A DNA stretch of 63,000 nt, filler included, from Collodictyon triciliatum (taxonomy: Eukaryota): NCBI GenBank assembly GCA_043381765.1. It is 13 parts of 13 records of this genome, joined end to end, with 100 filler letters (N's around TTAATTAATTAA, not from the genome) between each part and the next. Parts side by side here need not be neighbours in the genome. Positions count along the whole stretch, not along the records: positions 19,309 to 26,936 come from JBHJMP010005818.1; 12 more parts are not named here. The stretch is one strand, 5' to 3'. The notes beneath the pieces were generated by a model. The model saw only the letters and a program-made list of their open reading frames with translations, did not search any database and was not told the DNA's origin. This document shows positions 19,309 through 59,209 of the stretch, piece by piece (within the stretch, counting starts at the first letter, position 1; every line of letters begins with the position of its first letter). The translations under genes were made by a program, and so were the position numbers.

Positions 19309-19656
19309 GACGAAATCCGCGTCCTGTTGAAGCGAGCACGTAGGCCTGGCCGAGGTCCTGAATTCCTGAGCCGATGGCTGATGCGTTTTTAAGTTTCCAG
19401 TCGGTATTTCCCAGGGTTGTCAGCCTTTTCCCAGGAAATTTGCGGCGGTGATTGTGCTCACCAGCGGGTTGGCAATTGTCTGGAATGCAGGTTTGATTCC
19501 TGTTCCCTGCAGCCCCAACTCGACCAGCTCACCGCTTGCCCGATTCAAATCCGAGTAGGCTTTGTCTAATCGTTGCAGTTTGTTTAATGCGTTGTCAGTG
19601 TGCCGCGTAAGAAAGCGATCGACACCTCTGGCTTGTTTTCTAACATCAACAATCAT
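19309..19656 (-). pseudogene. Uncharacterised viral-type gene, apparently frameshifted near 19430, runs off the contig
   Basis: 78-aa ORF; a one-base shift continues as KRLTTLGNTDWKLKNASAIGSGIQDLGQAYVLASTGRGFR to the contig edge. Confidence 0.45.
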
Positions 19657-19835
19657 ACATTAGCCAAGAAATTTTATATAAGTTATATTATGAGCTTAAA
19701 ATACAGAACTCTTAATTCTTTATCACTACAAAAAAAAATATTCATTGGTTTAAAGATTGGTTTTCGAAACAAGATCAAAAAATAAATTTTGAAGATGATT
19801 CAAATCGTTTAACGGGTTTAAATTTCAATTATATA

Positions 19836-22800
19836 TTGTCCTATACTCTACCACCAAAAGTTAGTCCTGAAGATTTAAGGAAGGCCGCTAAAGAATTTCA
19901 AGAGTTGTATTGGAATACTAGAAAAGAAAAAGAAACAACTTACTCAAAAGAAGAATTTATTAAATTAGAGAAATTATATGAAAAGGGCTTTGGTGAAAAA
20001 ATGCCAAAAGAAGTAGATACATTGGATGAATTATCAAAAGAACTATTAGAAGAACCATTTCTACTTCCGTATCACATTACTGACTCGGACCCGGAACCGG
20101 TATTTCAATCAAATCGTAAAACATACACTAAAGACGATCTGGAAACTATTGAGAAATTTATAGAAGTAAATAAAGAAGAAGAAAATAATCCAAACATGCC
20201 AAGTTGGAAATATATATTGGCCTTTAAAACAGACCCTCCAGTAGGTATGACTCCTGAACAAATGGAACAGGCTGTAGAAGATGAGGTGTATAAAGCTGAA
20301 GATCCAGATAGACGTAGAAAGTACAATCAAAAACAAGTTATTACTTTAGAAAAAATGATAGACGTCATATTAAAAGATAATCCTAATGATTCCAGTCTTC
20401 AATTGGCAGTGCTAAAATATGAAGTGGCATTTTCTATGAAACCTCCAGATGGCATGACTAAAACAGAAATGAATAATGATACAGAAGAAAGATGGCGACG
20501 AATCGAAGAAGAACGTAAGAAAGAAGCGGATGAAGAAGAAGATAAGGGACGATTGGATTCAAAAATAGATGAGCTAAATGCGTATTTTGCACAATTTGAC
20601 GATGTAATAGAAAGCCCCGAAGGAGAGAAAACATTGCAAAAAATGGCAGACGAGGTTAAACAAGAAATTGGAAATAAAAAAAGAGTATTTGACAATCGGA
20701 TACCTTCAGAAAAAAAATGCGCGTGGGCAGAGAGTAGCATCTAAAGTTTACACAGGTATGAATCTTTGCTTTAAAGAGTGGTATAAACACAGAGGGTTTA
20801 GTTATAAAGATGACGTTCCAAAAGATTTTGGTGACGAAAAGGAATTTGAGTTTATGGATTACATGGACAATGAATTTGACGAAGACGTGCGATTATATCT
20901 TTATAGCTTTGCTGCCAACGAAGAATTAGAATATACAGAAGAAGAAATTTTGGACTTGATATGGTGGAATATTGCGTATTATAGATTTATTGCTCTGCTT
21001 GAAAAAGAAGTACAAAACAAACAAGAGGCAGATGCACGTGCAAAAGGAGCTTTTGAAAGTAACGCCGCGCGAGAAAGACAATTAAAACAGATTGAAGAAG
21101 AAAAAGAAAAAAAAAGATAGCTAGCCCTTGAAAAAAAAAACGGGCTGAAGAGGAACTGGCTGAAAAGTTAAGAAAAGGACAAGAAGTGCAAAGACTTAAA
21201 CTTAATAAAGAAATTTTGCAGGAATATCACAGAAGATATTTACAAAATACGGACGAAACTATTGCCCAAGACCCACAGGGAGCAAGAAGAGTCAATGATG
21301 CATTGATTTCGTTTGCAACACCAGCAACAGTAATAAACGAGGAAGAACTATTTAAACAAATTGTAGATTCTCTCAGTCAGGGTGAGTTAATTGAATTTGG
21401 TAATAAATTGGCCACAGATCTACAAATATATGTCAGAGATTTTTTGACGCAAAACGCCCCTGAACAAACAAATGAAGGTGTTGTTAAATTTTATAACTCA
21501 TTGCCACCCGAGCTACAAGAATACATTAAACAGCTCAGAGATTTCAAATTAGAATGTGAAAAGGTAATGCAAACTAGAGCAGAGGTTGTTAAAACAACAG
21601 AATTAGCACTAATCCCAACCGCGGAACTAAATGAAGCTTATAAGGAATTGATAGACCGTGAAGAAAAAGATCTTGAAGCAATAATGAACGATTCACTTAA
21701 TGCCAAGTTAAACGAATTTGATGATATAAATTTTAGTAATTTACTTGCACGGTCAATTGTAAGCATGATACAAACAAGTGCGCAGTTATCTCGTGCGGCT
21801 TTATCACAGTCCATGCAGAATTTGTTTACTACTTTTGAGCGCTCACAATATTTTAATCAATCCAATTATGCCGCTAGGGCACAGAGAACATCTAGCATTA
21901 TATTTGGGCCTCAAGTCCTGGGAACGGCATCACCAAACACTACATTTAATCCTGACCAAACAACGATGAGTATGTTAGGCTCGATATTAACTCCTGCACA
22001 GTCTTTTCTAAATCAAAGCATACAACAGCTGGATCAATCAGGAACATTTACACAGGCACAGACCGCGTCTATGCTCAACGAATCTACTATAGAATTAAAT
22101 CCTGATGCATCAAATATGAGTGCAGGGTCATTTATGGCAAACACTCCTATAGCACAAAGCATTACAAACACGCCTACATATACTCAGCGTAGCGGATTTG
22201 GTACAAAGAGTACAACTGATTTTAAGAGCCCATTACCAGTTAGTAAAACTGCGAGAGAATTATTTGGTCCAGCACAAACACCAAACAGAACTAATGTTCC
22301 CGATACTAGCAAGAGTATCAGTATCACCAACATAACACAAAAATTAGCTGATATGAGCAATAGATTAAATCAAATAAAAGAACAAAATGAAACAAATAAA
22401 ATAGAAAATATTGAAACTCAAAAAATATCTGAAGATTTGAATCTAGATAAAGATTTAACACCTGCATCTCTAGAAAAACAAGCAGATGAATTAATTAAAA
22501 AATTAGCAGAACACGTAGAGCTTTTACAACAAAAACTAGATAATGCATATGAACAAATCGATACATTGGCTATTGCGATGAGTAATCAAAACGAATATAT
22601 ACAAGAACTTCAAGACACTGTTAATACTGCGTCTCAACTGGCAACTGGCTTGATGCAAGACAAAGAAATTTATCAAAATAAATTACAGGACTTGGGCGTG
22701 CAAATGGATAACGAACGTGCCCGCTTTGAGGAACAACGTGCAGCTCTCAACAAGATTATACCAGGCAACTATAGCGTCGGATTTGATACAACAAACATTT

Positions 22801-24459
22801 CAGTTGCACCTTCAGTAACAAAGACACCAAAAACACCAAAGATACAAGAAACAAAAGAAACTAAATCATAGTTCTAGTTTAAGCACAGCAGAGTTAGTAA
22901 ATTGAAGAGACAATTTAAAAAAAGTTCAGGATAGTTATAAGCAAAAGAGACAAGCACTAAATGCACAAATACAACTGAATAGAATTCGGGAATTAGAAAG
23001 TCAAGTACAAACTTTAATATTGTTACAGGAGGCACCCGACACTAAAGATGTCGAAATAGAAGATCTTAAAGAACAGATAAATAATTTAAATGCATTATTA
23101 AATCTTGAAAATCCTATTGTTATTGAACAAACTCAAACAATACAAGATTTACAGAATTTCATTGGAATATTACAAGCCCGAGGAAAAGAACTTGCTGATA
23201 CAGCTACTTTTTATTATAACGCTGCGTTTCCTGCAGTTCCCACAGATGAACCAGGGACACCAGTAGGAAGAGCTCCTCGCGAGGATACTCCCCAGAGTGC
23301 ACAACGACAAATTGCTGTAAGACAAGCCAGTCCAGGGGCCCCACCTAGTCCTTTTATGGTACCTGGCCCTTGGCAATTTGTTGATGATTTTCCAGCTCTA
23401 CCTCCGGCTGCACCTCAAAACCTGCAAGCAGACCCTAGAATACAGGTATTACCTACTAGCCTTCCTCGCCCCACTGCAGCTATGGTACTTGCTCAAAGTC
23501 CCGTTCAACCTCAACGTCAACAACAACCACTTGGTCTGCCACCTCTGCCACCTGTGTCTCCGGTTGTTCCTGGAAGATTGGCTGCAGCAAGAGCCATGGC
23601 TGGGGCTGTTTTTAATGTTGGCGCTGGCTTAGCCCAAGCTGCAGTTGGCGCTGGCGCTGGCATTTTCCAGGCGGCAGGTGATGCAGTACGAGGAAATATT
23701 TTCGGTGGTAATAATATGGCGGCAAACAGAAGAGTTTCAATGCAAGCAGCAACACCAAGTCCTATAATGGCAGCAGTACCATTATTTCCTCCCGGTAGGG
23801 GCGGCGGCGGTGGAGGCGGTGGCGGTGGAGGCGGTAGTCAACAGCCAATATTTAACCCAATGCGTCCTCAAGTATCGGACAGCCGTGAATACGGCAATCA
23901 ATCACGATTTGCTAGAAAAGTATCGAGGTATATCGAACAGGGTAATCCAGCAAGAGCTAATGATTATGGTATAGTAGATAAGCAAACTTTTGAAGCAGCC
24001 ATGAGAGAATTTAATATTGAATATGTCGATTTAACTCCTGACACTAGTGCGCTTATGGACATACTAGAATTATTTTTTGAAGGCAACATTCCAGGCCTAC
24101 AAAGCGCATTAAAAACATACCGTAAAGAAGGGTCATGGCCTCTCAAGTACAAGCCGAAATACGGAGACACGACTGACCAGAAACTGAGAAACGTCGCTTT
24201 TCTCCCCCAGCAAAACCTGGGCAGGGTCGTCAACTCTGACCTCGGTACCATCATTATTCCGGGCCAATCAAATTACAACATCCGACGAGAGGGGCTCAAT
24301 TACGTCGTCTACGGCGGGGGCCAGAAGCGCGCATTCGGCTCGGCCAGAGACGCCCAGTTCTTTGTCAGCTCCGGTGCATTTGGCCGCAAATCTTACGGGC
24401 CTGTCACAGAGCGTGTCTTTGGAACACCTATTAAGAATCTTTCACAGGCTATTTATTAA
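19836..24459 (+). pseudogene. Giant acidic/coiled-coil/Pro-Gly-rich protein gene (~1500 codons) split into four ORFs
   Basis: ORFs 19836-20744, 20668-21120, 21186-22871 and 23020-24459 are bridged by coding-like sequence (KR*LALEKK/RAEEELAEKLRKGQEVQ; KQKKLNHSSSLSTAELVN*RDNLKKVQDSY); shifts lie near A-rich runs; no introns. Confidence 0.65.
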
Positions 24460-24488
24460 ACAATTGTTATTATAATAAAAATTGTTTA
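24457..24488. terminator. 32-bp AT-rich palindrome between convergent stop codons; candidate bidirectional hairpin 3'-end signal
   Basis: TAAACAATT-G-TTATTATAATAA-A-AATTGTTTA is self-complementary except for one G/A mismatch. Confidence 0.7.
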
Positions 24489-24489
24489 C

Positions 24490-26574
24490 TTATGGCTTGG
24501 ACCAGCCTGTTACTACCCACTTATTTAATGTTTTATGACACATAATTGTCCAGCATGACCCAATTGGAATATTTTTAGATTCGCCAGCATTGAAAGCTGT
24601 TTGTGTGCCATCGGACCACAAATTTACACTATCTGAAGAAAATTCTACTTGAGCAAAAGCACTTGCGAACCCACCCTGGTCAAGGTGTATAATTTTAATA
24701 GTCCATCCATCTGGAATAGTAGCAGTATTTGCAGACGGAAGCAATAATTTTGCGGTTACATTGTGTTGAGTAGGACGACTAATAAAATATATCGGAGGAC
24801 TATTAGTACCGAGAGTTATAACTCCTGACGTGTTATGGGTATCAAACTCTTGGATTGGGCATCTCGCTAGTTCAAAATGTCTATCAAATAAGCATCTATC
24901 AGGTCTAAAAATTACATTCCGAAGCGAATTGACAACAATACTTACAAAAAATTCTCCGCTAGCTGTTCCGCCTCTGATGCAATTTGTACTCGAAACAACT
25001 GTACCAAACCTAACTTCATTTCCCGCAGGTAATTCTACACAACTCGGAGCAATGTATCCACTCACGGTTAGATTATTTGTGATTGATGCGCTACCCGAAG
25101 AACTGAACCCGGTAGCTGAAACTGTTTCTGGGAAACTTGCATTGCTTGCCATCCAATGTGAAGTAATGTACCAGACATTATCAATAAATTCACAGTGATG
25201 AGTTGCGTCTTTTGATACAGTGGTTGCCGTAGAATGATTAGTTACTAGGCCCCCTTGATAAATTCGTAAAGTAACACCCGCAATTGGCGTAAACTGAAGA
25301 ACAGCGCCTGATAAATTGCTATTCGGCACAATATCAAATGACATTCCATTTGTAAAGCCAGAGCTAAGAAATCTTAATACCACAGGTGTAAAACCCCCCA
25401 TATCAACTATAACATTGTTACTAAATGTTGCGCCCAGGTCGAAAGTTTGACTGTTGGCAGTTACAGTAATTACATTGGTTGGTTGAATGATCTGTTGAGA
25501 TATTGTTAAATTGCCGTTGACAGTCGCTGCTGTATTTGAAACAGATAATGTATTTACACCCTGTGCACGAAGAGAAACGACATTACTGTTACAAACAACT
25601 CTATTGTCTCCACTACTAGCAAAGCGATACCCCGCTGTGTCTCCATCCGGTGCTTGAAATCTGGCATTAGTTGTCACTGTTTGAAAGTGATCATTAAAAT
25701 TCACTCCTATTCGCATTCGTTCAGTTCCGTCTGTGCTAAAATTTATCACATTGTCACTTCCATAGATACCTGATTGCGGTACCGTCGAGTCACCAAATAA
25801 AAGAGCTGGAGCAGCTGCCGATCCTGCTGTGTTTAAATTTAATTGGCCTGAGATTGTAGGAGTCACCGCGTTGGAAACAACATATTGGCTATTTTGAACA
25901 CTGACTGTTCCAGCCTCTATAAACAATCTTTGTCTTGTCCCTGATTGATTACCAACATTAAATCGCATAGTCCTTACATTTGAACCATCTTCTCCTAAAA
26001 CTATATTGACATTATCAAACCCTCTCAACGTACCAGGATCGGTTGAGAAAGTCAAGGGAACCGATAAAGTGCTACCATTTTGATCCCACGTTTGTCTTGC
26101 AACATTTCCAGTAATAATACCCATTACATTGGTCGATGAAAGACCATAAAGGCCTGTATTGCTGGCACCAATTCTTATACCTGATGAACTCCCAGACCCT
26201 GTCCGAATAATATCGATGGATGGATTATCAGTAAATGAATATGTGCCTGCACCCGTTGAATTTAAAATTTGACCTGTAGCTGATGGAGTCGGTACCTGGT
26301 TCACTGTATCCCAAAAAACTGATGTGCCATTTGTTTCTAGAAATTTTCCAGCTTGCCCGGCTTGTGGAGGAAGCTCTCCTTCAATTCCGGTATACTGATA
26401 ACCAGTTGCTGCATCATTTACTTCCAAAAATTTATTTGCATCGGCTGCCGTTATCGTTGGCAAAACGAAACTTGACTGAGTTGTATCTGTGTATTCACCA
26501 TTTGTCCCGTCTGTCACAAAACTATAATCATAAGGGTATCTACTTGAATTTGATCCGATTTCGTATGAAGTCAT
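24490..26574 (-). CDS. Viral fibre/receptor-binding protein, 694 aa, intact
   Basis: G/S/T/N-rich beta composition; phage tail-fibre-type repeats LPPQAGQAGKFLETNGTSVFW and GSAAAPALLF..SGIY..INFSTDGTERMRI; two head-like modules ending NVWYIT and NKWVVTG. Confidence 0.75.
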   Translation of the reverse strand: MTSYEIGSNSSRYPYDYSFVTDGTNGEYTDTTQSSFVLPTITAADANKFLEVNDAATGYQYTGIEGELPPQAGQAGKFLETNGTSVFWDTVNQVPTPSATGQILNSTGAGTYSFTDNPSIDIIRTGSGSSSGIRIGASNTGLYGLSSTNVMGIITGNVARQTWDQNGSTLSVPLTFSTDPGTLRGFDNVNIVLGEDGSNVRTMRFNVGNQSGTRQRLFIEAGTVSVQNSQYVVSNAVTPTISGQLNLNTAGSAAAPALLFGDSTVPQSGIYGSDNVINFSTDGTERMRIGVNFNDHFQTVTTNARFQAPDGDTAGYRFASSGDNRVVCNSNVVSLRAQGVNTLSVSNTAATVNGNLTISQQIIQPTNVITVTANSQTFDLGATFSNNVIVDMGGFTPVVLRFLSSGFTNGMSFDIVPNSNLSGAVLQFTPIAGVTLRIYQGGLVTNHSTATTVSKDATHHCEFIDNVWYITSHWMASNASFPETVSATGFSSSGSASITNNLTVSGYIAPSCVELPAGNEVRFGTVVSSTNCIRGGTASGEFFVSIVVNSLRNVIFRPDRCLFDRHFELARCPIQEFDTHNTSGVITLGTNSPPIYFISRPTQHNVTAKLLLPSANTATIPDGWTIKIIHLDQGGFASAFAQVEFSSDSVNLWSDGTQTAFNAGESKNIPIGSCWTIMCHKTLNKWVVTGWSKP

Positions 26575-26590
26575 ATAAATACATACAAAA

Positions 26591-26936
26591 TTATTCTACG
26601 GGAACGAGCTTGAGCGTAATGTCAACACTTGCCGTCTGCGGGAAGTTAACTAGATTGTTGTACTGGTCAATAAAACTTATATTGAATCTTGTCGGCAAAA
26701 CCGAAAAGACAAGTTGTGTAAATTCTTCTTGGCTTTCTTCAATAAATGTATACTGGTATTTACTATTACTTAGATTCAATGGACACCGATAAGCAATATC
26801 AAAACGCTCAGGGATATCTGTGTTGAAATTCAGATTTGTAATTCCCTGGATAGTCATAAAAAAATAAGAGTACGGTTGTAAATTTCCAGGATTCGGCAGA
26901 TATTTTTTAGGAGTTGTTTGCAGAGGTAATTCAAAT
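26591..26936 (-). CDS. C-terminal part of a putative minor capsid (penton) protein, truncated by the contig end
   Basis: Frame is open to the contig edge: ..LQPYSYFFMTIQGI..DIAYRCPLN..RFNISFIDQYNNLVNFPQTASVDITLKLVPVE, resembling the I-x-I-x-x-x-D-x-x-G/N-x-x-x-D/N-F..TL end of PLV/Polinton pentons; 16 nt upstream of the fibre ATG. Confidence 0.55.
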
Positions 26937-27036: not shown

Positions 27037-30000
27037 CCCTCAGTCAACTTGGCGACAGGAATCGGCTCCAGTCCACTTTGCTTGGCAGACTTATGACAGA
27101 TACATTTATTAACCTTCCTCTCAATTCATTTTTTATGCAGAAAATAAACATATCCAAAAAAAATATTAAATGATGAATACCGTGCAAGATTCATGGGTAT
27201 GAATGGTCGATACAACCAGGGCAACATTAGCTGGCGTTTCTTTGGGCAACCAGGTCAGCAGATGCGGAGCTGGCGTTCCTTGCGACGGGTGGATTTGGTT
27301 GATGGCATCGATGAGGAAGACAAACTTCTCGTCCCTATAATACATAGTTTAATGTCAATTTTTTATTCGATTCTAGTATTTTAATTTCGATTTAAAAAAT
27401 AAATAATACATAAAAATTAAATTTTTACTTGTTTTTCTCCTGAATCATCTTCAGCAAGCCCTGGAGTCCCTCTTTTTCGTATTCTGGTGATAAAAAAAAA
27501 TAATAAATGCATGAAGAATTATACGATATTTGAATTAAAAAGATAAAAGTAAAATAAAATACAATACCAGCTTCTTCCTTCTTTTCCTCGACAAAGTTGG
27601 CAGAGTTTGCGACCAAAGTCCAAAAGCGAATCGAAACACTAAAATAAAAAAAATATTTTTAGAAAAACCAAAATAAAATGTCTGCAGCATATATTAAAAT
27701 TAGAAATAAAAAGAACGTACCTTTCCACGTAGTTGCTGAGATTGGTGCATCCGACAAAATGGAAAAAGACATGCAGCCCAGGATGCTTCAGCCCTTCGAA
27801 GTCTCTCGCTGTAGCAGCCATGAGTGACGACTTTCCAATCCCAGACTCGGCAGCAAGAACGATGATTTTGGATTTCTCGGTGTTCAGCTGATTCATGGCC
27901 TAATGAAAATAATTATTGATAAGAAAAGAATAGCAAAACATATTATTGTCATTTTTAATTAATTTATCTTTATCTTACTTGCTCCGTGATTGTCTTGAGA
28001 AGCTCCTTTCTTCCGCCAAACCCAGCCAGTCGATGCATCTTGAACTGGTGCTGCGCTTGGTCTTCAGGGTCTCTCACCTAGGATATAGTTATGTCAACAA
28101 AATGTAAATGAAATGAAATATATCTCACCAATCAATACTGATATACATTAAAAAAAATAAAATAAAAAATACAGTTTGCTTCCCAAAGTCACGCTCGATG
28201 GCGTAGGTGAGATGGTATGTCACAAAGTCCGAATACTCCTTCGCTCCCTTGTAGACAACATGCCCGAACTTGGCCTTGACTTTCCCTTTGAGCTCGTCCT
28301 GCCTCTTACGCTAAAAAAAACATTAAAAAAATATATGTCAAGAAATCAAATCATTAAATTAACGTAACATAATAAGATAAAAAAGAAAATTAAAGACTTT
28401 CTATCAATTTTTACCGCCTCTTCGTTTTCAGCTTGGAATAGCTTTCTTTCTTCCTCGCTCTTGGCATGTTCGACAGCATAGTGCTCATCGCGGAGGTAGA
28501 AGAAGGCGCGGCTGCATGCTGGTTTGTCAATCAGACAGGCATACTGAATCTGAACATGAATATATAATTTAGAGAATAATTTGTTAATTTTTCAATTATC
28601 ATTCATGAAAAGATAAAGAATAAAATATAGATATTCGCTTCACCTCGTATTCAGTCACACTCAGCCCAGGCATTCCGTCAATGAATGGGAAGCGGCTATT
28701 CGTTTCACTGCGCCATTCCACCCAGACGTCCTTCATGGTGGCATCAGGCTTGGTATTCAGCAGCTCCTCGAGGCGGGCTTGTTTATTCAGCTCCGTTTTG
28801 TTCTGGTCAGGAATCCAGCCGTAACGCGCACCGAGGGAACACACAAAGTATGGACACTTTCCGATAGAATCCAAGCAGCGAATCACAACCTTGAAAGTAA
28901 CAGGAGGAAATTGAAGCTCATTATTTTAGAAATTGCAGCATAATGAAAATTTTAAAAAATAACGAATTAATAATATTCTGATTACCCATCCCTCGCTACT
29001 GTCCACAGAAGTCAGTCCCCAGCGCAAATCGATAAAGACAAGGTCCACTCCCTTCGATTTCGCAAGTCTTTTCAACCTGACATTAAAAATTATATTGTAA
29101 GGAAAATAAAAACATCAAATTATCGTTCCTTATCATAAATTTATTATAAAAATATATTGAACTAACTCAGGGGCTCCATTCTTGAAAAACTCGTCTCTTT
29201 CTTTCTGCATGTCACGGAAGGTCGAGGAAAGAAAAACACGGATGACACGCTCGTCAAAGACGATGAGCGGCAATGGTGTTGGTGTCAGGTATCTTNNNNN
29301 NNNNNNNNNNNNNNNNNNNNNNNNNNNNNNNNNNNNNNNNNNNNNNNNNNNNNNNNNNNNNNNNNNNNNNNNNNNNNNNNNNNNNNNNNNNNNNNNNNNN
29401 NNNNNNNNNNNNNNNNNNNNNNNNNNNNNNNNNNNNNNNNNNNNNNNNNNNNNNNNNNNNNNNNNNNNNNNNNNNNNNNNNNNNNNNNNNNNNNNNNNNN
29501 NNNNNNNNNNNNNNNNNNNNNNNNNNNNNNNNNNNNNNNNNNNNNNNNNNNNNNNNNNNNNNNNNNNNNNNNNNNNNNNNNNNNNNNNNNNNNNNNNNNN
29601 NNNNNNNNNNNNNNNNNNNNNNNNNNNNNNNNNNNNNNNNNNNNNNNNNNNNNNNNNNNNNNNNNNNNNNNNNNNNNNNNNNNATTGGAAATTATATTTC
29701 GGCATGGTTCAAAAAATTAAAAAAAAAAACCTTAAATATGAAAGATTAAAAGGAGGTGTATTTTGTTACCCCAAGACTTCCCAAATGGCCAACACTTTGC
29801 CCAATAAGATACTGGAGCATTGCATTGAGCAAATCTGTAAGAATATTTATATGTCAGTTACCCATACAAAACAAATGGATGATATATGAAAAATTCCAAA
29901 ATCAGTTCCCATTAAAACAAATAAAGCAAACCAGCGTAATGGGCCTGAGAAGCAACAGCCTCATAACGCATATTCAATTTCAGAAACCAATCAACAATGA

Positions 30001-30421
30001 GTTTTTGATTCTCTTCAACAAGAACCTCCTCCTCAATAGCTTTGTCACTGATATTAATACAGGGATTAAATACCAATCCACGAAAGAAATAAATTAATAA
30101 AATTGTGAATATCATAAATAAATCATACGCAAACAAGCGGGAGTGGTAGCTTCCCAAGGACTTTCCGGTAACCGCCTCAATCAGCATGGCTAAAAAGAAT
30201 CCGTCCATTAAGTCATCGCGGATGTTCTTCGCCTTGAGCTCGATTTTTCCCAGGTGGTGGTTCACCCATTCCAGGACAGCCTGTGCTCAGTTGCCAGGTT
30301 AAGTAATCAATTCTCTTCTATATATAAAATAATTATTGATGATAATGTATGCATTTGTACAGACTTCGTCAATGGTGACAAGGCTGACGTTGGCCTCGGT
30401 GCTTGTTTCGGTTGCAGACAT
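27037..30421 (-). CDS. DUF4062 plus NACHT-like STAND NTPase (TEP1/NWD/NPHP3-type) with an N-terminal calponin-homology domain; multi-exon, 3' incomplete
   Basis: IRVFLSSTFRDMQKERD, IDLRWG, FVCSLGARYGWIP, SVTEYE; Walker A AESGIGKSSL, FFHFVG, Walker B FLIDAINQ; CH-like WVNHHL..IRDDLMDGFFLAMLIEAVTGK lies upstream of a scaffold gap (29296-29683). Confidence 0.8.
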
Positions 30422-32099
30422 GTTTCAAATCTTCCTATTCCTTCGTGTGTGTTGCATAAAAAACATCGTATTCATGGGTTATAATATATGCCAATTATCA
30501 ATAAAATTATTCTACTTTTTCATAAATGGAAGTTGTTTGATATATCAATTTATATTTTGAATGCGTTTTAGATAATTTCGATAGGCTAATAAGATTATAT
30601 TGTATTAAAGCTTAAAGCTCAAAATTACAACTCTAAATATCTTTATTTTTCTTTATTATGAAATAAACTATTCGTCAATACGAATATATCTCAATATGAG
30701 ATGAATTCTGTGCTTTTTGACTGCTTTTTTTGTAATTAATATGGATGTGATTTGCTTATGCATCATACAGCCACTAAACATTCTCTTAATGCTAAATACT
30801 TCGTATAATACAAGAAATGTGATGTATGCAAGTCTGCGTGATAGATTGATATTCTTCCAGGTCGACTTATATAATTCCTTTGAGTCTATTCGAAATTGTG
30901 CAAATGTCCCAAACTATATGTGGTGGTTAGTATATTCCCACAGAATGAAAAATTCACAAACAAAATAAAATTGTAATACAGATACTCGTGGACTACTCTC
31001 CGTTAATTATAGCCTGGGATTTTCATCGTGAAGGCTTTACGTGGGATAAAAAAAAACCAAACCACCACCGCTTAAGTTTTCCAGGTTTTAGGTGCTTGCC
31101 TTACATTCAACGTGAGCGTTTTTTCCAAATGTGCCTTGCAGTAACTGACAAATCATGAAAGATAATCTTCGTTAGGAATTGTCCTTGTAAAATATTACTA
31201 TTCGAGTGAAAAAGTAAACTTTCATTTAGCATGAAAATAAAATAATTCTGACTTCATAATATTGCACCTTGAATTGCTTGCCCAGACTGTTTTAGTGTGA
31301 GGCGCGTCTCCAAGAACCCGCACGCTCTTTTTGGAGAGCTCTTGTATGAGTTGCTCTTTCTTGAGCGATGCTTATTCTTCCATAGCTCCGGGTGGTTGGG
31401 TTTAAAATGGTCGACATTGTCTTTCTATACTTGAAAGGTCGTTCTGTTAGTATTTGTGGCGGTGTTCACCATGATATTTTCTTTAGGCTTTTCCCTTGTG
31501 TTCTTCGACAGAGTACGAAATAGAAGGGAAACGTAACATAGAATAATTTTTATACTTTGGGTAGTTCTGATGTTGGATTGTTATTCAGCGCTTCATTCAT
31601 CAAAAACACCTTTTGACCATTGAAGAATACTGTGAATATGAGTTGTTTGTTGTTTTTCACGTACCTTCGATGTCGCCCTTGATGAAGCCCGGAGGAATGC
31701 GGCAGATAATGGGTAGCAAAGAGCTGGCCTCTCTCGTTATGGGCACATAAAAAAAGNNNNNNNNNNNNNNNNNNNNNNNNNNNNNNNNNNNNNNNNNNNN
31801 TTAATTAATTAANNNNNNNNNNNNNNNNNNNNNNNNNNNNNNNNNNNNNNNNNNNNGTTTTTTTTATTGTTTTTTTATTGTTTTTTTATTGTTTTTTTAT
31901 TGTTTTTTTATTGTTTTTGACTGTTTTTTCTTTTGTTTTTGACTCTTTCGAGCGATTCAGAGATTGCATTTTAATCAAAACTCGAACTTTGTTAACAAGT
32001 TGGTTAGTGTGTCTATATCTGGAGATTATATACTTTTATGTCTATTCCCACAAAATGATATAAATATCGCATCATATATCGAATTTTGATGTTTTGTAG

Positions 32100-55944: not shown

Positions 55945-56951
55945 TCACACTGATGATTTGCTTTGCCGCGGGCGCGCTTCTGGGCGATGCCTTCTTCCAT
56001 CTCATTCCCGAAACCTTCCACCTGATTGAAGAAGGCAGCCACGGGGACGAGCATCACGACGAACACGACGACCACAACGACACCATCGCAGACGCGGGTC
56101 CGGATGCCGGGGGCCGGCGGGTCTTTGGCGTGGGGCTGAGTGCCGTTGCGAATGCGGTGCGGGTGGCTGTGCGGGCGGGAGACGAGGACGCAGACCACGA
56201 TGACCACGGCCATGGAGAAGAAGAACAAGAGGAAGAAGAAGACGACCACGACCACGCCGCTTCCATTGTCCCGATGCTCTGTCTGATGTTCGGCTTCTTC
56301 ATCTTCTTCCTGCTCGAGACGTATCTGCATTCGCGCTGCCACGACCACGGCCTGGAAAACTCCCCAAACACAGCTCGTGTTGGGCACAGCGACGAGGCCG
56401 ATAATGCGTCGCATTCGCACTCCCACTCGCATCCCCATGCGAATCCCATTGCCCACTTGGAGGACGGAATCCATCCAAAGGTCGAGAACGTCCTCGAGGC
56501 GCCGCCTGTCGGGCTCATGATGATTCTCTCGGATGCGCTGCATAACTTTGTGGACGGCCTGGCCATCGGCTCGGCCTTCAGCTCCAGCTTCAACACGGGC
56601 ATTGCCACAAGTGTGGCCATCATAGCCCACGAGGTCCCCGCTGAGTTGGGCGAGATGGCTGTTCTCTTGTCGTCCGGATACTCGAAGCTCCAGGCTGTCT
56701 GTCTGAATCTGCTCAGTGGCTCGACTTCGCTTCTGGGTGCCGTTATTGGGGTGGTTGTTGGGGAAAACATCGACAATGCGGAGCAGTATATTCTGCCGAT
56801 AGTTGCGGGCGGGTTCATCTATATCTCGTGTGTCGACTTGCTCTCGGGGATTCTCAGCTCCCATGGAACGTCGCCCATACTCTTGCGGTGGAAGCTGCTT
56901 GCCATCTGGGTCGGCATTGCAATTATGATTGGTATCACTTATCTTGAATAA
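55945..56951 (+). CDS. ZIP (SLC39, LIV-1-like) metal transporter, N-terminal ~39 aa absent from contig start
   Basis: FAAGALLGDAFFHLIPE, His/Asp-rich loops, DALHNFVDGLAIG, HEVPAELGE, AGGFIYISCVDLL. Confidence 0.95.
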
Positions 56952-58060: not shown

Positions 58061-59209
58061 CTATTCGAGGTAGGATATACCAATCATGACACCTATGCCG
58101 ACCCAAATCGCCAGAAGCTTCCACTTTGTAGACACTGGGGAGGCCTCATGGGAGTTCAATATGCCGGACAACAGGTCGACACAGGATATGTAGATAAAGC
58201 CACCAGCTACAATAGGAAGGATGTAAAGCTCTGCATTCTCTATGTTGTCACCAATCACAATTCCAATAATCGTGCCAAGGATGGCAGTTGTGCCACTGAG
58301 CAGATTCAAGGTTACGGCCTGCATCTTGGAATAGCCAGAAGAGAGCAACACTGCCATCTCCCCGAGTTCGGCGGGAATCTCGTGTGCGACAATCGCAACA
58401 GTGGTTGCTATCCCAGTGTTGAAGCTTGAGCTGAAAGCCGAGCCGATGGCCAATCCATCCACAAAGTTGTGGAGTCCGTCGGACAGAATCATCATCAAGC
58501 CGATGGGCGGTGCCTTGAGGATGTCCTCGACTTGGCCTTTCTCATGGTCTCTCTCTGTGTATGGGTGGAAAGGTGGGTGGGCATGGGAAATCAAACCACC
58601 TGTGGCGTCGACTTTTTCGTCAGCCCTTAGTGGGCGCCGTTCAGCTTCCGGGCTCTCCATGCCGTGGTCATGGCACCGGGAATGGAGGTATGTCTCCAAG
58701 AGGAAGAACATAAAGAAACCAAACATCAAGCAGAGCATTGGGACAATGCTGTTTGAGTGGCTGTGCTCCTCTTCGTCATCCTCCTCCTCGTGGTCGTGGT
58801 CATGGTCATGGTCGTCTTCTGATTTAAACCCAGTTGTCCTCAAGACAGCGTGAGCAGCTGCACTTACTCCCAGAGCCAACTTGTGCTGACCTAAACCAGC
58901 AGCAGCCTGTGTGAGGCTTATGCCAGGACTGGGACTTGGGTCTGCGATGGTGTCGTTGTGGTCGTGGTCGTGGTCGTGGTCATGGTCGTGGTCATGGCTA
59001 TCTTCTTCAATCAAGTGGAAGGTCTCTGGAATGAGATGGAAGAACGTATCTCCAAGGAGCGCCCCAGCGGCGAAGCAAATCATCAAGGTAAAGACAGTCT
59101 TCTTGTATTCAGAGCCCAGAAGCGGAAGAAGGGCAAGTCCTACAAGAGAGAGGACGCTCACAATTACACTAGCGACGATTGCAGAGACCCATTCCTCTGT
59201 GTTGGCCAT
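58061..59209 (-). CDS. ZIP (SLC39, LIV-1-like) metal transporter, complete, intronless
   Basis: 382 aa; same motifs with (HD)n tracts; close paralogue of 55945-56951. Confidence 0.95.
   Translation of the reverse strand: MANTEEWVSAIVASVIVSVLSLVGLALLPLLGSEYKKTVFTLMICFAAGALLGDTFFHLIPETFHLIEEDSHDHDHDHDHDHDHNDTIADPSPSPGISLTQAAAGLGQHKLALGVSAAAHAVLRTTGFKSEDDHDHDHDHEEEDDEEEHSHSNSIVPMLCLMFGFFMFFLLETYLHSRCHDHGMESPEAERRPLRADEKVDATGGLISHAHPPFHPYTERDHEKGQVEDILKAPPIGLMMILSDGLHNFVDGLAIGSAFSSSFNTGIATTVAIVAHEIPAELGEMAVLLSSGYSKMQAVTLNLLSGTTAILGTIIGIVIGDNIENAELYILPIVAGGFIYISCVDLLSGILNSHEASPVSTKWKLLAIWVGIGVMIGISYLE

Follow-up and report, generated by a model that had tools for sequence, protein, structure and literature searches.

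Polinton-like viruses (PLVs) are small viruses of eukaryotes that have a double-stranded DNA (dsDNA) genome, build a double-jelly-roll (DJR) capsid and belong to the phylum Preplasmiviricota. They are distinguished from polintons and virophages by the absence of a protein-primed DNA polymerase B (PolB) and of an adenain-like protease, and their genomes often carry terminal inverted repeats. Here we analyse a 63,000-nucleotide (nt) stretch of DNA (the window) from the assembly of Collodictyon triciliatum (Eukaryota; GCA_043381765.1), in which one contig, JBHJMP010005818.1 at positions 19309-26936, is very probably an internal fragment of a PLV genome holding part of the virion module. In order, the fragment appears to hold the 3′ part of a penton gene that is followed directly by a fibre gene, then a convergent gene of ~1,500 codons and a small conserved gene of the kind that precedes the major capsid gene in relatives.

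Several described systems resemble this element in part. In the available portions of two accounts, PgVV-14T, Gezel-14T and the PLVs of cryptophytes are credited with phage-tail-fibre-like proteins in the virion, thought to mediate independent attachment, with an S3H-type helicase and with giant-virus promoter motifs upstream of genes (10.1101/2022.07.28.501842, PMC12220804). The first of these, as far as its accessible part goes, reports a tail-fibre-like protein in PgVV-14T particles and promoter motifs of their giant viruses in both virophages and PgVV-14T (10.1101/2022.07.28.501842). PLV genomes are put at about 14-40 kb in the portion available of one source (PMC12220804), and PLVs in protist assemblies, phage-like fibres and mosaicism are already in print in the accessible sections of several (PMC10120064, 10.64898/2026.10.13.758929, PMC12220804). 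The locus described here likewise encodes a phage-tail-fibre-like protein. However, its fibre matches none of the Pfam families Peptidase_S74, Laminin_G_3, collagen and PTR that the partly available texts list for cryptophyte PLVs and PgVV, its relatives use an rve integrase whereas those texts give PgVV a tyrosine recombinase, and its upstream motif is of a TTTCT type rather than the AAAATTGA that they give for PgVV-14T and cryptophyte PLVs.

The identity of the element was approached through its penton gene. The minus-strand open reading frame (ORF) at 26591-26936 stays open to the contig end, where it is cut, and covers the C-terminal 114 codons (residues 178-291) of a penton (minor capsid) protein, as assigned by homology to proteins of 291 amino acids (aa). 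Along its whole length the piece shares 92-95% identity with the C-terminal end of a 291-aa ORF present in the metagenomic loci L003, L004, L005 and L008 (95% for L004), and it matches L007 in two pieces (tblastn); in each of these loci the ORF lies directly upstream of a fibre gene. The fold was read from the full-length L004 homologue, of which the contig holds residues 178-291, modelled from a 13-sequence alignment with a mean predicted local distance difference test (pLDDT) of 79 and a predicted template-modelling score (pTM) of 0.69.

Foldseek searches of the PDB with this model placed the mavirus penton at ranks 1-6 (6g41/6g42, template-modelling score (TM) 0.51-0.55), the best solved match being 6g41 (E 1.9e-11, TM 0.53-0.55), with further matches to Sputnik (3j26_N, E 3.1e-7), to many adenovirus penton bases (E about 1e-5 or weaker) and to the PBCV-1 penton (8h2i_bG, E 4.9e-5). 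In BFVD, the best named match and best superposition was M4QZG2 of Tetraselmis viridis virus S1 (TVS1; E 2.9e-13, TM 0.69/0.67), which has only 14% sequence identity to the penton homologue. It was followed by a DUF5901 protein of Pyramimonas orientalis virus and by the minor capsid protein of mavirus (TM 0.55-0.57); further matches included adomavirus LO5, a minor capsid protein from a Qinghai Lake virophage, and the pentons of MELD, adintovirus and adenovirus. A scan of IMG/VR with the penton alignment found no relatives. On the strength of the modelled homologue, 26591-26936 is predicted to encode the C-terminus of a single-jelly-roll penton. This bears out the initial annotation, which had seen a penton-like gene end directly upstream of a fibre gene and named a jelly-roll search as its check: the stop codon of the penton ORF lies 16 nt upstream of the start of the fibre ORF.

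The fibre gene (24490-26574, minus strand) is intact and encodes 694 aa. When 8000 candidates from a collection of 5.8 billion proteins were scored, 19 homologues were retained at E <= 0.001, all metagenomic and none with a Pfam domain; neither a scan of IMG/VR with the protein nor a PDB sequence search with the fibre profile gave a match. Three types of N-terminal tail are found in the alignment, namely an MTSYE type in 14/20 sequences, including the fibre of this contig, an MGF type in 4/20 and a third type in 2/20. The MTSYE-type tail (residues 1-37, 26464-26574, minus strand) is nearly invariant in those 14 of the 20 aligned sequences, spans ~37 residues and contains YPYDY, which we take to recall the conserved penton-binding motif of adenovirus fibre tails.

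Tail type follows penton type. In 11/11 loci with both genes, the gap from penton to fibre is 14-65 nt; pentons ending in KLVPVE are paired with MTSYE-type tails (5/5) and those ending in FTLR..P with MGF-type tails (6/6), and the contig itself combines a KLVPVE penton end with an MTSYE tail. Such pairing is what an adenovirus-like docking of the tail on its cognate penton predicts. The likeness to adenoviruses would thus consist of a shared penton fold and a short, conserved N-terminal fibre tail matching the penton type; it is a likeness at the level of fold, and penton-fibre binding here is putative. A predicted complex of two penton copies with fibre residues 1-70 scored 0.01, which counts neither way on binding.

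The remainder of the fibre is composite. Residues 38-110 (26245-26463, minus strand) form a repeat region of phage-tail-fibre type with the core G..GK.L.TNG....W, which matches proteins in 35 other loci (within L011-L046), often several times per locus (tblastn). Five of eight such repeat-sharing proteins tested match PHROG tail-fibre families and 7/8 match phrog_26190; the 694-aa fibre itself has no PHROG match. The distal half (24493-25530, minus strand; 346 aa) is 76% identical to L002, and the rest of the protein is only ~25% identical to the same locus, from which we conclude that the fibre gene is a mosaic whose distal part is exchangeable, as expected of a receptor-binding protein.

Support for a PLV also comes from related loci that extend the gene order. 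A scan of metagenome contigs with the fibre alignment yielded 46 loci, of which 11 (L001-L010 and L018) are true relatives and 35 share only the short fibre repeat. L002 (16,409 nt), L009 (14,818 nt) and L010 (12,876 nt) show the same order as the contig (penton and fibre, then a very large, oppositely oriented gene and the small gene) and continue it on both sides. Upstream of the penton gene, L002 encodes an ATPase of 240 aa that matches Pox_A32 at E 1.5e-9 (38.1 bits, cut-off 22.8) and phrog_2666 at 4.4e-12, and that has homologues in L009 and L010 (59% identical, tblastn). The same side holds a DUF5906 primase-helicase of 762-802 aa (E 4.7e-13 and 1.8e-16; phrog_1156 DNA primase, 4.9e-16) and, in L009, an rve integrase (E 7.5e-12, 45.9 bits against a cut-off of 32.6) with a weak homologue in L002. 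Downstream of the small gene, a 533-aa protein of L002, also found in L009, is the DJR major capsid protein (MCP). In the ESM Atlas it falls among capsid clusters of Preplasmiviricota and Nucleocytoviricota (feature scores 0.97-0.98, TM 0.65-0.71), and in some of these clusters a minority of the members have the families DJR-like_dom, Capsid_N, Capsid_NCLDV or Sputnik_MCP; a PDB sequence search with it gave no match. In L004 and L005, the closest penton relatives, the homologous capsid protein measures 593 aa (E 3e-20; 24% identical across 377 aa), and its gene stands upstream of that for the penton.

Integrase, helicase, ATPase, penton, fibre and capsid protein thus all lie within 13-16 kb in the relatives. 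Extension of the fragment, carried out by way of these syntenic loci, therefore recovered the DJR capsid protein, Pox_A32, DUF5906 and rve genes, and no tailed-phage or bacterial context was seen in them. No protease and no PolB was found in the ORFs of L002, L009, L010 and L004 with Pfam and PHROGs (small ORFs to Pfam E <= 10), in contigs that may be incomplete and by searches that distant homologues could escape. TVS1 is presumably also without a recognisable protease, and the present element probably shares with it the character of a small DJR-capsid virus of aquatic protists. The relatives resemble mavirus in combining an rve integrase with an A32-type ATPase, and the penton fold is common to both mavirus and Sputnik; they differ from these virophages in the lack of a detected cysteine protease or PolB and in the long fibre gene adjoining the penton gene.

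Two features of the related loci stand apart from this comparison. An inverted repeat at L002:5325-5524, whose 65-nt arms are 89% complementary and stand 70 nt from each other, lies in the intergenic region that separates the helicase gene from a gene of 148 aa; it could be a replication origin or a joined pair of genome termini. In L007:156-4278, the end of a 417-aa ORF (2762-4015) overlaps penton residues 165-203 and is followed by a frame change, and a 538-aa type I phosphodiesterase gene lies upstream (Pfam E 3.8e-45); L007 may be a rearranged or integrated copy beside a non-viral gene.

Mosaicism is evident also at the DNA level. Identity to L002 is 84% for the distal half of the fibre (24457-25515 region); the penton together with the fibre tail (26291-26936) is 87% identical to L004, L005 and L007, and the left end of the contig is 74-77% identical to L009 and L010.

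Related sequences recur in metagenomes. Twenty sequencing runs from 11 studies, mostly labelled freshwater metagenome, hold 7-23% of the sampled words of the contig; no run holds half of them, and no RNA run is listed. Short contigs of four freshwater metagenome runs cover 23-28 of 30 bins of 19309-26936 at >=85% likeness, the uncovered bins being uninformative, and 24/110 of these contigs in run X1 and 19/71 in run X2 are >=99% alike to it. Accordingly, close relatives of the element, or of its host, occur in fresh waters, as judged by sequence matches. The initial annotation had proposed part of the morphogenesis module of an undescribed small dsDNA virus; virus and module are supported, and 'undescribed' holds only in part in view of these relatives in public freshwater metagenomes.

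At the left end of the contig, a small conserved gene (19309-19656, minus strand; ~119 aa in L009) occupies the place that, in L002 and L009, is directly upstream of the MCP gene. Here it shifts frame around 19422-19438, and the contig ends ~3 codons short of its stop. Relative to the L010 protein (tblastn), residues 34-116 are read in one frame (84% identity) and 112-154 in another (79% identity), which identifies the 78-aa left-end ORF as an apparent frameshifted, end-truncated copy of the ~119-aa gene.

A promoter-like motif, AAATTTCTT (19666-19674, minus strand), starts 18 nt upstream of the ATG of this gene (19656). With both strands counted, L002, L004, L009 and L010 contain 69 copies of the generalised pattern WWWTTTCT[GTA], and 13 of these stand no more than 40 nt upstream of a gene in the same orientation, against an expected 1.4%. 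The genes concerned belong to the capsid module (penton in three cases, capsid protein in three, the small gene in two, a 112-116-aa gene in three, the fibre and a 170-aa gene in one each), and the motif starts at exactly -18 in 12/13 and at -19 in 1/13. The integrase, helicase and ATPase genes were not seen to have it upstream. Where two genes diverge, as do the 112-aa gene and that for the penton, two inverted copies fit into one intergenic region of 34-36 nt, and the fibre gene at 24490-26574 has a degenerate form of the TTTCT motif at -18.

Between the fibre gene and the small gene lies the large gene (19690-24459, plus strand), which would span about 1,450-1,580 codons. It is distributed over four open frames, given here from stop to stop: frame 0 at 19716-20741, frame 1 at 20611-21117, frame 0 at 21132-22868 and frame 1 at 22906-24456. 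Judged by comparison with other proteins, the four plus-strand ORFs at 19836-24459 are pieces of one gene, not four genes, because the relatives have a single ORF of 1188-1368 aa at this position and because two uninterrupted proteins are between them colinear with three of the four pieces, P0030 (1436 aa) with orf150 (E 1e-7) and orf479, and P0032 (1448 aa) with orf561 (E 6e-5) and orf479. Each frame opens with 49-150 codons lacking an ATG, and all six A>=7 runs of the region fall in the four frame-switch zones. The start is likely ATG 19690, whose position with respect to the small gene matches the arrangement in L009; this ATG lies in frame 1 and joins frame 0 across an A9 run.

The large protein contains coiled-coil, low-complexity and Pro/Gly-rich stretches, and its conserved part is a C-terminal domain of about 175 aa (23929-24456, plus strand) that is 54-57% identical to L010. 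A HMMER search with the C-terminal 179 residues against 1.84 billion representatives found only 15 proteins with this domain, 13 of them at E <= 1e-10. The domain reaches the last residue in 13/15, mostly in proteins of 1000-1450 aa; the exceptions are P0037, in which it ends 58 residues short, and P0043, which is truncated. The ESM Atlas returned scores of only 0.75-0.76 and no model for the L010 homologue. Position in the virion module, together with the coiled-coil and low-complexity make-up, suggests a structural (virion) or entry protein. An AT-rich palindrome (24457-24488; 21-nt arms, 95% complementary) separates the large gene from the convergent fibre gene and is possibly a bidirectional terminator.

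With four breaks in the large gene and one in the small gene, the copy is somewhat more likely than not defective, and we lean towards an element that is endogenous or decaying. The competing view is that the genome is intact, either free or episomal or a co-isolated contaminant, and that the frame breaks are homopolymer errors of the assembly; this we consider possible but doubtful. In its favour, the A>=7 runs of the large gene coincide with the switch zones as described, and at two sites covered by contigs of three of the four freshwater runs (X1, X2 and X4) the difference from the metagenomes is a single base of homopolymer length. At 20676, an A7 run, this difference is found in all covering contigs (4 in X1, 1 in X2, 1 in X4), and at 19422 it is found in X2, X4 and part of the depth of X1; both are exact frame-switch sites, in the large and the small gene respectively. 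The pieces >=99% alike in freshwater runs, such as the 24/110 contigs in X1, and the position of both contig ends inside viral genes, with no host junction, also fit an intact genome. Against it, all three frames are closed at 21118-21131 and 22869-22905, so the breaks there are not single homopolymer slips, and at 22938 the metagenome contigs are themselves polymorphic. The ~2.4 kb of fibre and penton piece is unbroken, but it contains only one A/T run >=7 and therefore argues little either way. That the switches at A-runs of the large gene are used, by slippage, rather than being defects is very unlikely in our estimate. An alternative genetic code was rejected as the cause of the broken gene, because the standard code leaves the fibre gene, the penton piece and every ORF of the relatives open, and an intron at the 21118-21131 break was rejected because no GT...AG was found by eye.

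Taken against the identification as a PLV fragment and the proposals built on it are the following points. None of the seven translated ORFs of the contig reaches threshold in a Pfam and PHROG scan, and capsid protein, ATPase, helicase and integrase are absent from 19309-26936 and from the other contigs of the window, being present only in the relatives. The related contigs may be incomplete, and neither terminal inverted repeats nor a circular overlap were found in L002, the longest relative, or in L009 or L010. As the relatives are mosaic, the missing parts of this genome may differ from theirs. Regarding the fibre, the monomer model is poor (pLDDT 52), with moderate confidence only at residues ~365-475 and ~580-690, and the phage baseplate, spike and fibre proteins that it matches in Foldseek (E down to 8.9e-7) reach a TM of at most 0.16 by query, making the resemblance only a hint. 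Penton type and fibre-tail type are encoded side by side, and their co-variation could be linkage alone. The WWWTTTCT[GTA] pattern was defined after viewing the data, which makes the binomial p of 1e-11 too optimistic; the fixed -18 spacing nevertheless appears striking. Finally, 4/5 frame breaks are at A7-A10 runs, where assembly error is possible, and those at 21118-21131 and 22869-22905 could be true gene boundaries in this copy.

The initial annotation had left the choice between a PLV and a virophage-like element open. A virophage in the strict sense (Maveriviricetes), i.e. a parasite of giant viruses with a four-gene morphogenesis core that includes a cysteine protease, is unlikely, even though mavirus and Sputnik provide the best solved-structure matches of the penton, the relatives carry an rve integrase as mavirus does, and the upstream motif shared by the capsid genes recalls the use of giant-virus late promoters by virophages, as described in the available part of one account (10.1101/2022.07.28.501842). 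Neither a cysteine protease or other protease family nor PolB was found in the scanned ORFs of L002, L009, L010 or L004, contigs that may be incomplete, so that absence is not proof; the best viral structural match is the PLV TVS1, at TM 0.67-0.69 compared with 0.55-0.57 for mavirus. A PLV therefore fits better, and that half of the original assignment stands, with virophage the poorer fit.

A fragment of a giant virus (Nucleocytoviricota) genome, or an endogenous giant-virus element, is highly improbable. The penton model does match minor capsid proteins of Pyramimonas orientalis virus, CeV, CroV and klosneuviruses, as well as the PBCV-1 penton, but these giant-virus matches are weaker than that to TVS1, and the hallmark genes of the relatives, all within 13-16 kb, are those of a small element. 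A tailed bacteriophage fragment or bacterial contaminant, in which the fibre would be a phage tail fibre, is extremely unlikely despite the tail-fibre-type repeats at residues 38-110 and the weak phage baseplate, spike and fibre matches of the fibre model, given that the adjoining gene encodes a penton of mavirus, adenovirus and PLV type, that the syntenic relatives carry a DJR capsid protein, Pox_A32 and rve integrase, that seven contig proteins and ten L002 ORFs have no PHROG tail, portal or HK97-capsid match, and that phage-like fibres are already described in PLVs in the available part of one source (PMC12220804).

For the PLV fragment, we propose a tentative picture of the virion. Five penton subunits would close each capsid vertex, where a trimeric fibre would be anchored by its short conserved N-terminal tail and would bind the host cell surface through the exchangeable distal domain; a TTTCT-type promoter element common to the genes of the capsid module, 18 nt ahead of each start codon, would switch them on together. 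A more ambitious version is that of a distinct freshwater PLV lineage with an adenovirus-style penton-fibre plug, in which the 37-residue YPYDY tail is swapped with the penton as one cassette, with a -18 TTTCT promoter borrowed from a helper giant virus and with a new, lineage-specific virion or entry protein of 1,200-1,580 aa that bears the rare C-terminal domain. That all of these hold jointly seems rather improbable.

The window is a chain of contigs joined by spacers of the form N-TTAATTAATTAA-N, in which a script counted 14 stretches, 19309-26936 being a separate contig of 7628 nt and the last stretch being cut by the window end. The other complete contigs measure 4703-4730 nt, and because the stretches at 27037-29295 (2259 nt) and 29684-31756 (2073 nt) form one 4720-nt scaffold with a gap of 388 N, 27037-31756 is a scaffold of usual length and the 7628-nt contig is the sole true length outlier among the complete contigs, as had been observed initially. 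Two further early observations, namely the freedom from microsatellites and the short intergenic gaps, were confirmed by measurement: none of the 25 Tandem Repeats Finder rows in the window (score >=80) falls inside 19309-26936, with microsatellites starting or ending many of the other contigs, and the densely coding contig has gaps of 16, 30, 65, 148 and 179 nt between table-11 ORFs, compared with the 16-180 nt first given. Its GC content (0.39) falls inside the range of the other contigs (0.33-0.47). These have few long ORFs and encode ordinary cellular proteins, including two ZIP transporters, an NHL-repeat protein and a GT61 glycosyltransferase, and look eukaryotic by gene content. The two ZIP zinc-transporter ORFs are intron-less and lie in opposite orientation on the same GC-rich contig (0.47), at 55953-56951 (plus strand; Pfam E 2e-51) and 58061-59209 (minus strand; 4e-59). 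An Rfam scan of the whole window gave no family.

PLVs are described as abounding both in waters and in the genomes of protists, and they may shield these hosts from giant viruses, according to the accessible parts of two sources (PMC10120064, PMC12220804). To these the contig at 19309-26936 adds one more fragmentary member, and for the annotation of the C. triciliatum assembly its value lies in marking a viral fragment that should not be taken for host genes. Of interest to specialists are the strict pairing of penton type with fibre-tail type and the large, fast-evolving protein family with its rare conserved C-terminus. The fixed -18 promoter element could serve in the search for a helper virus and, if the promoter is indeed borrowed, this TTTCT element would identify the helper giant virus.

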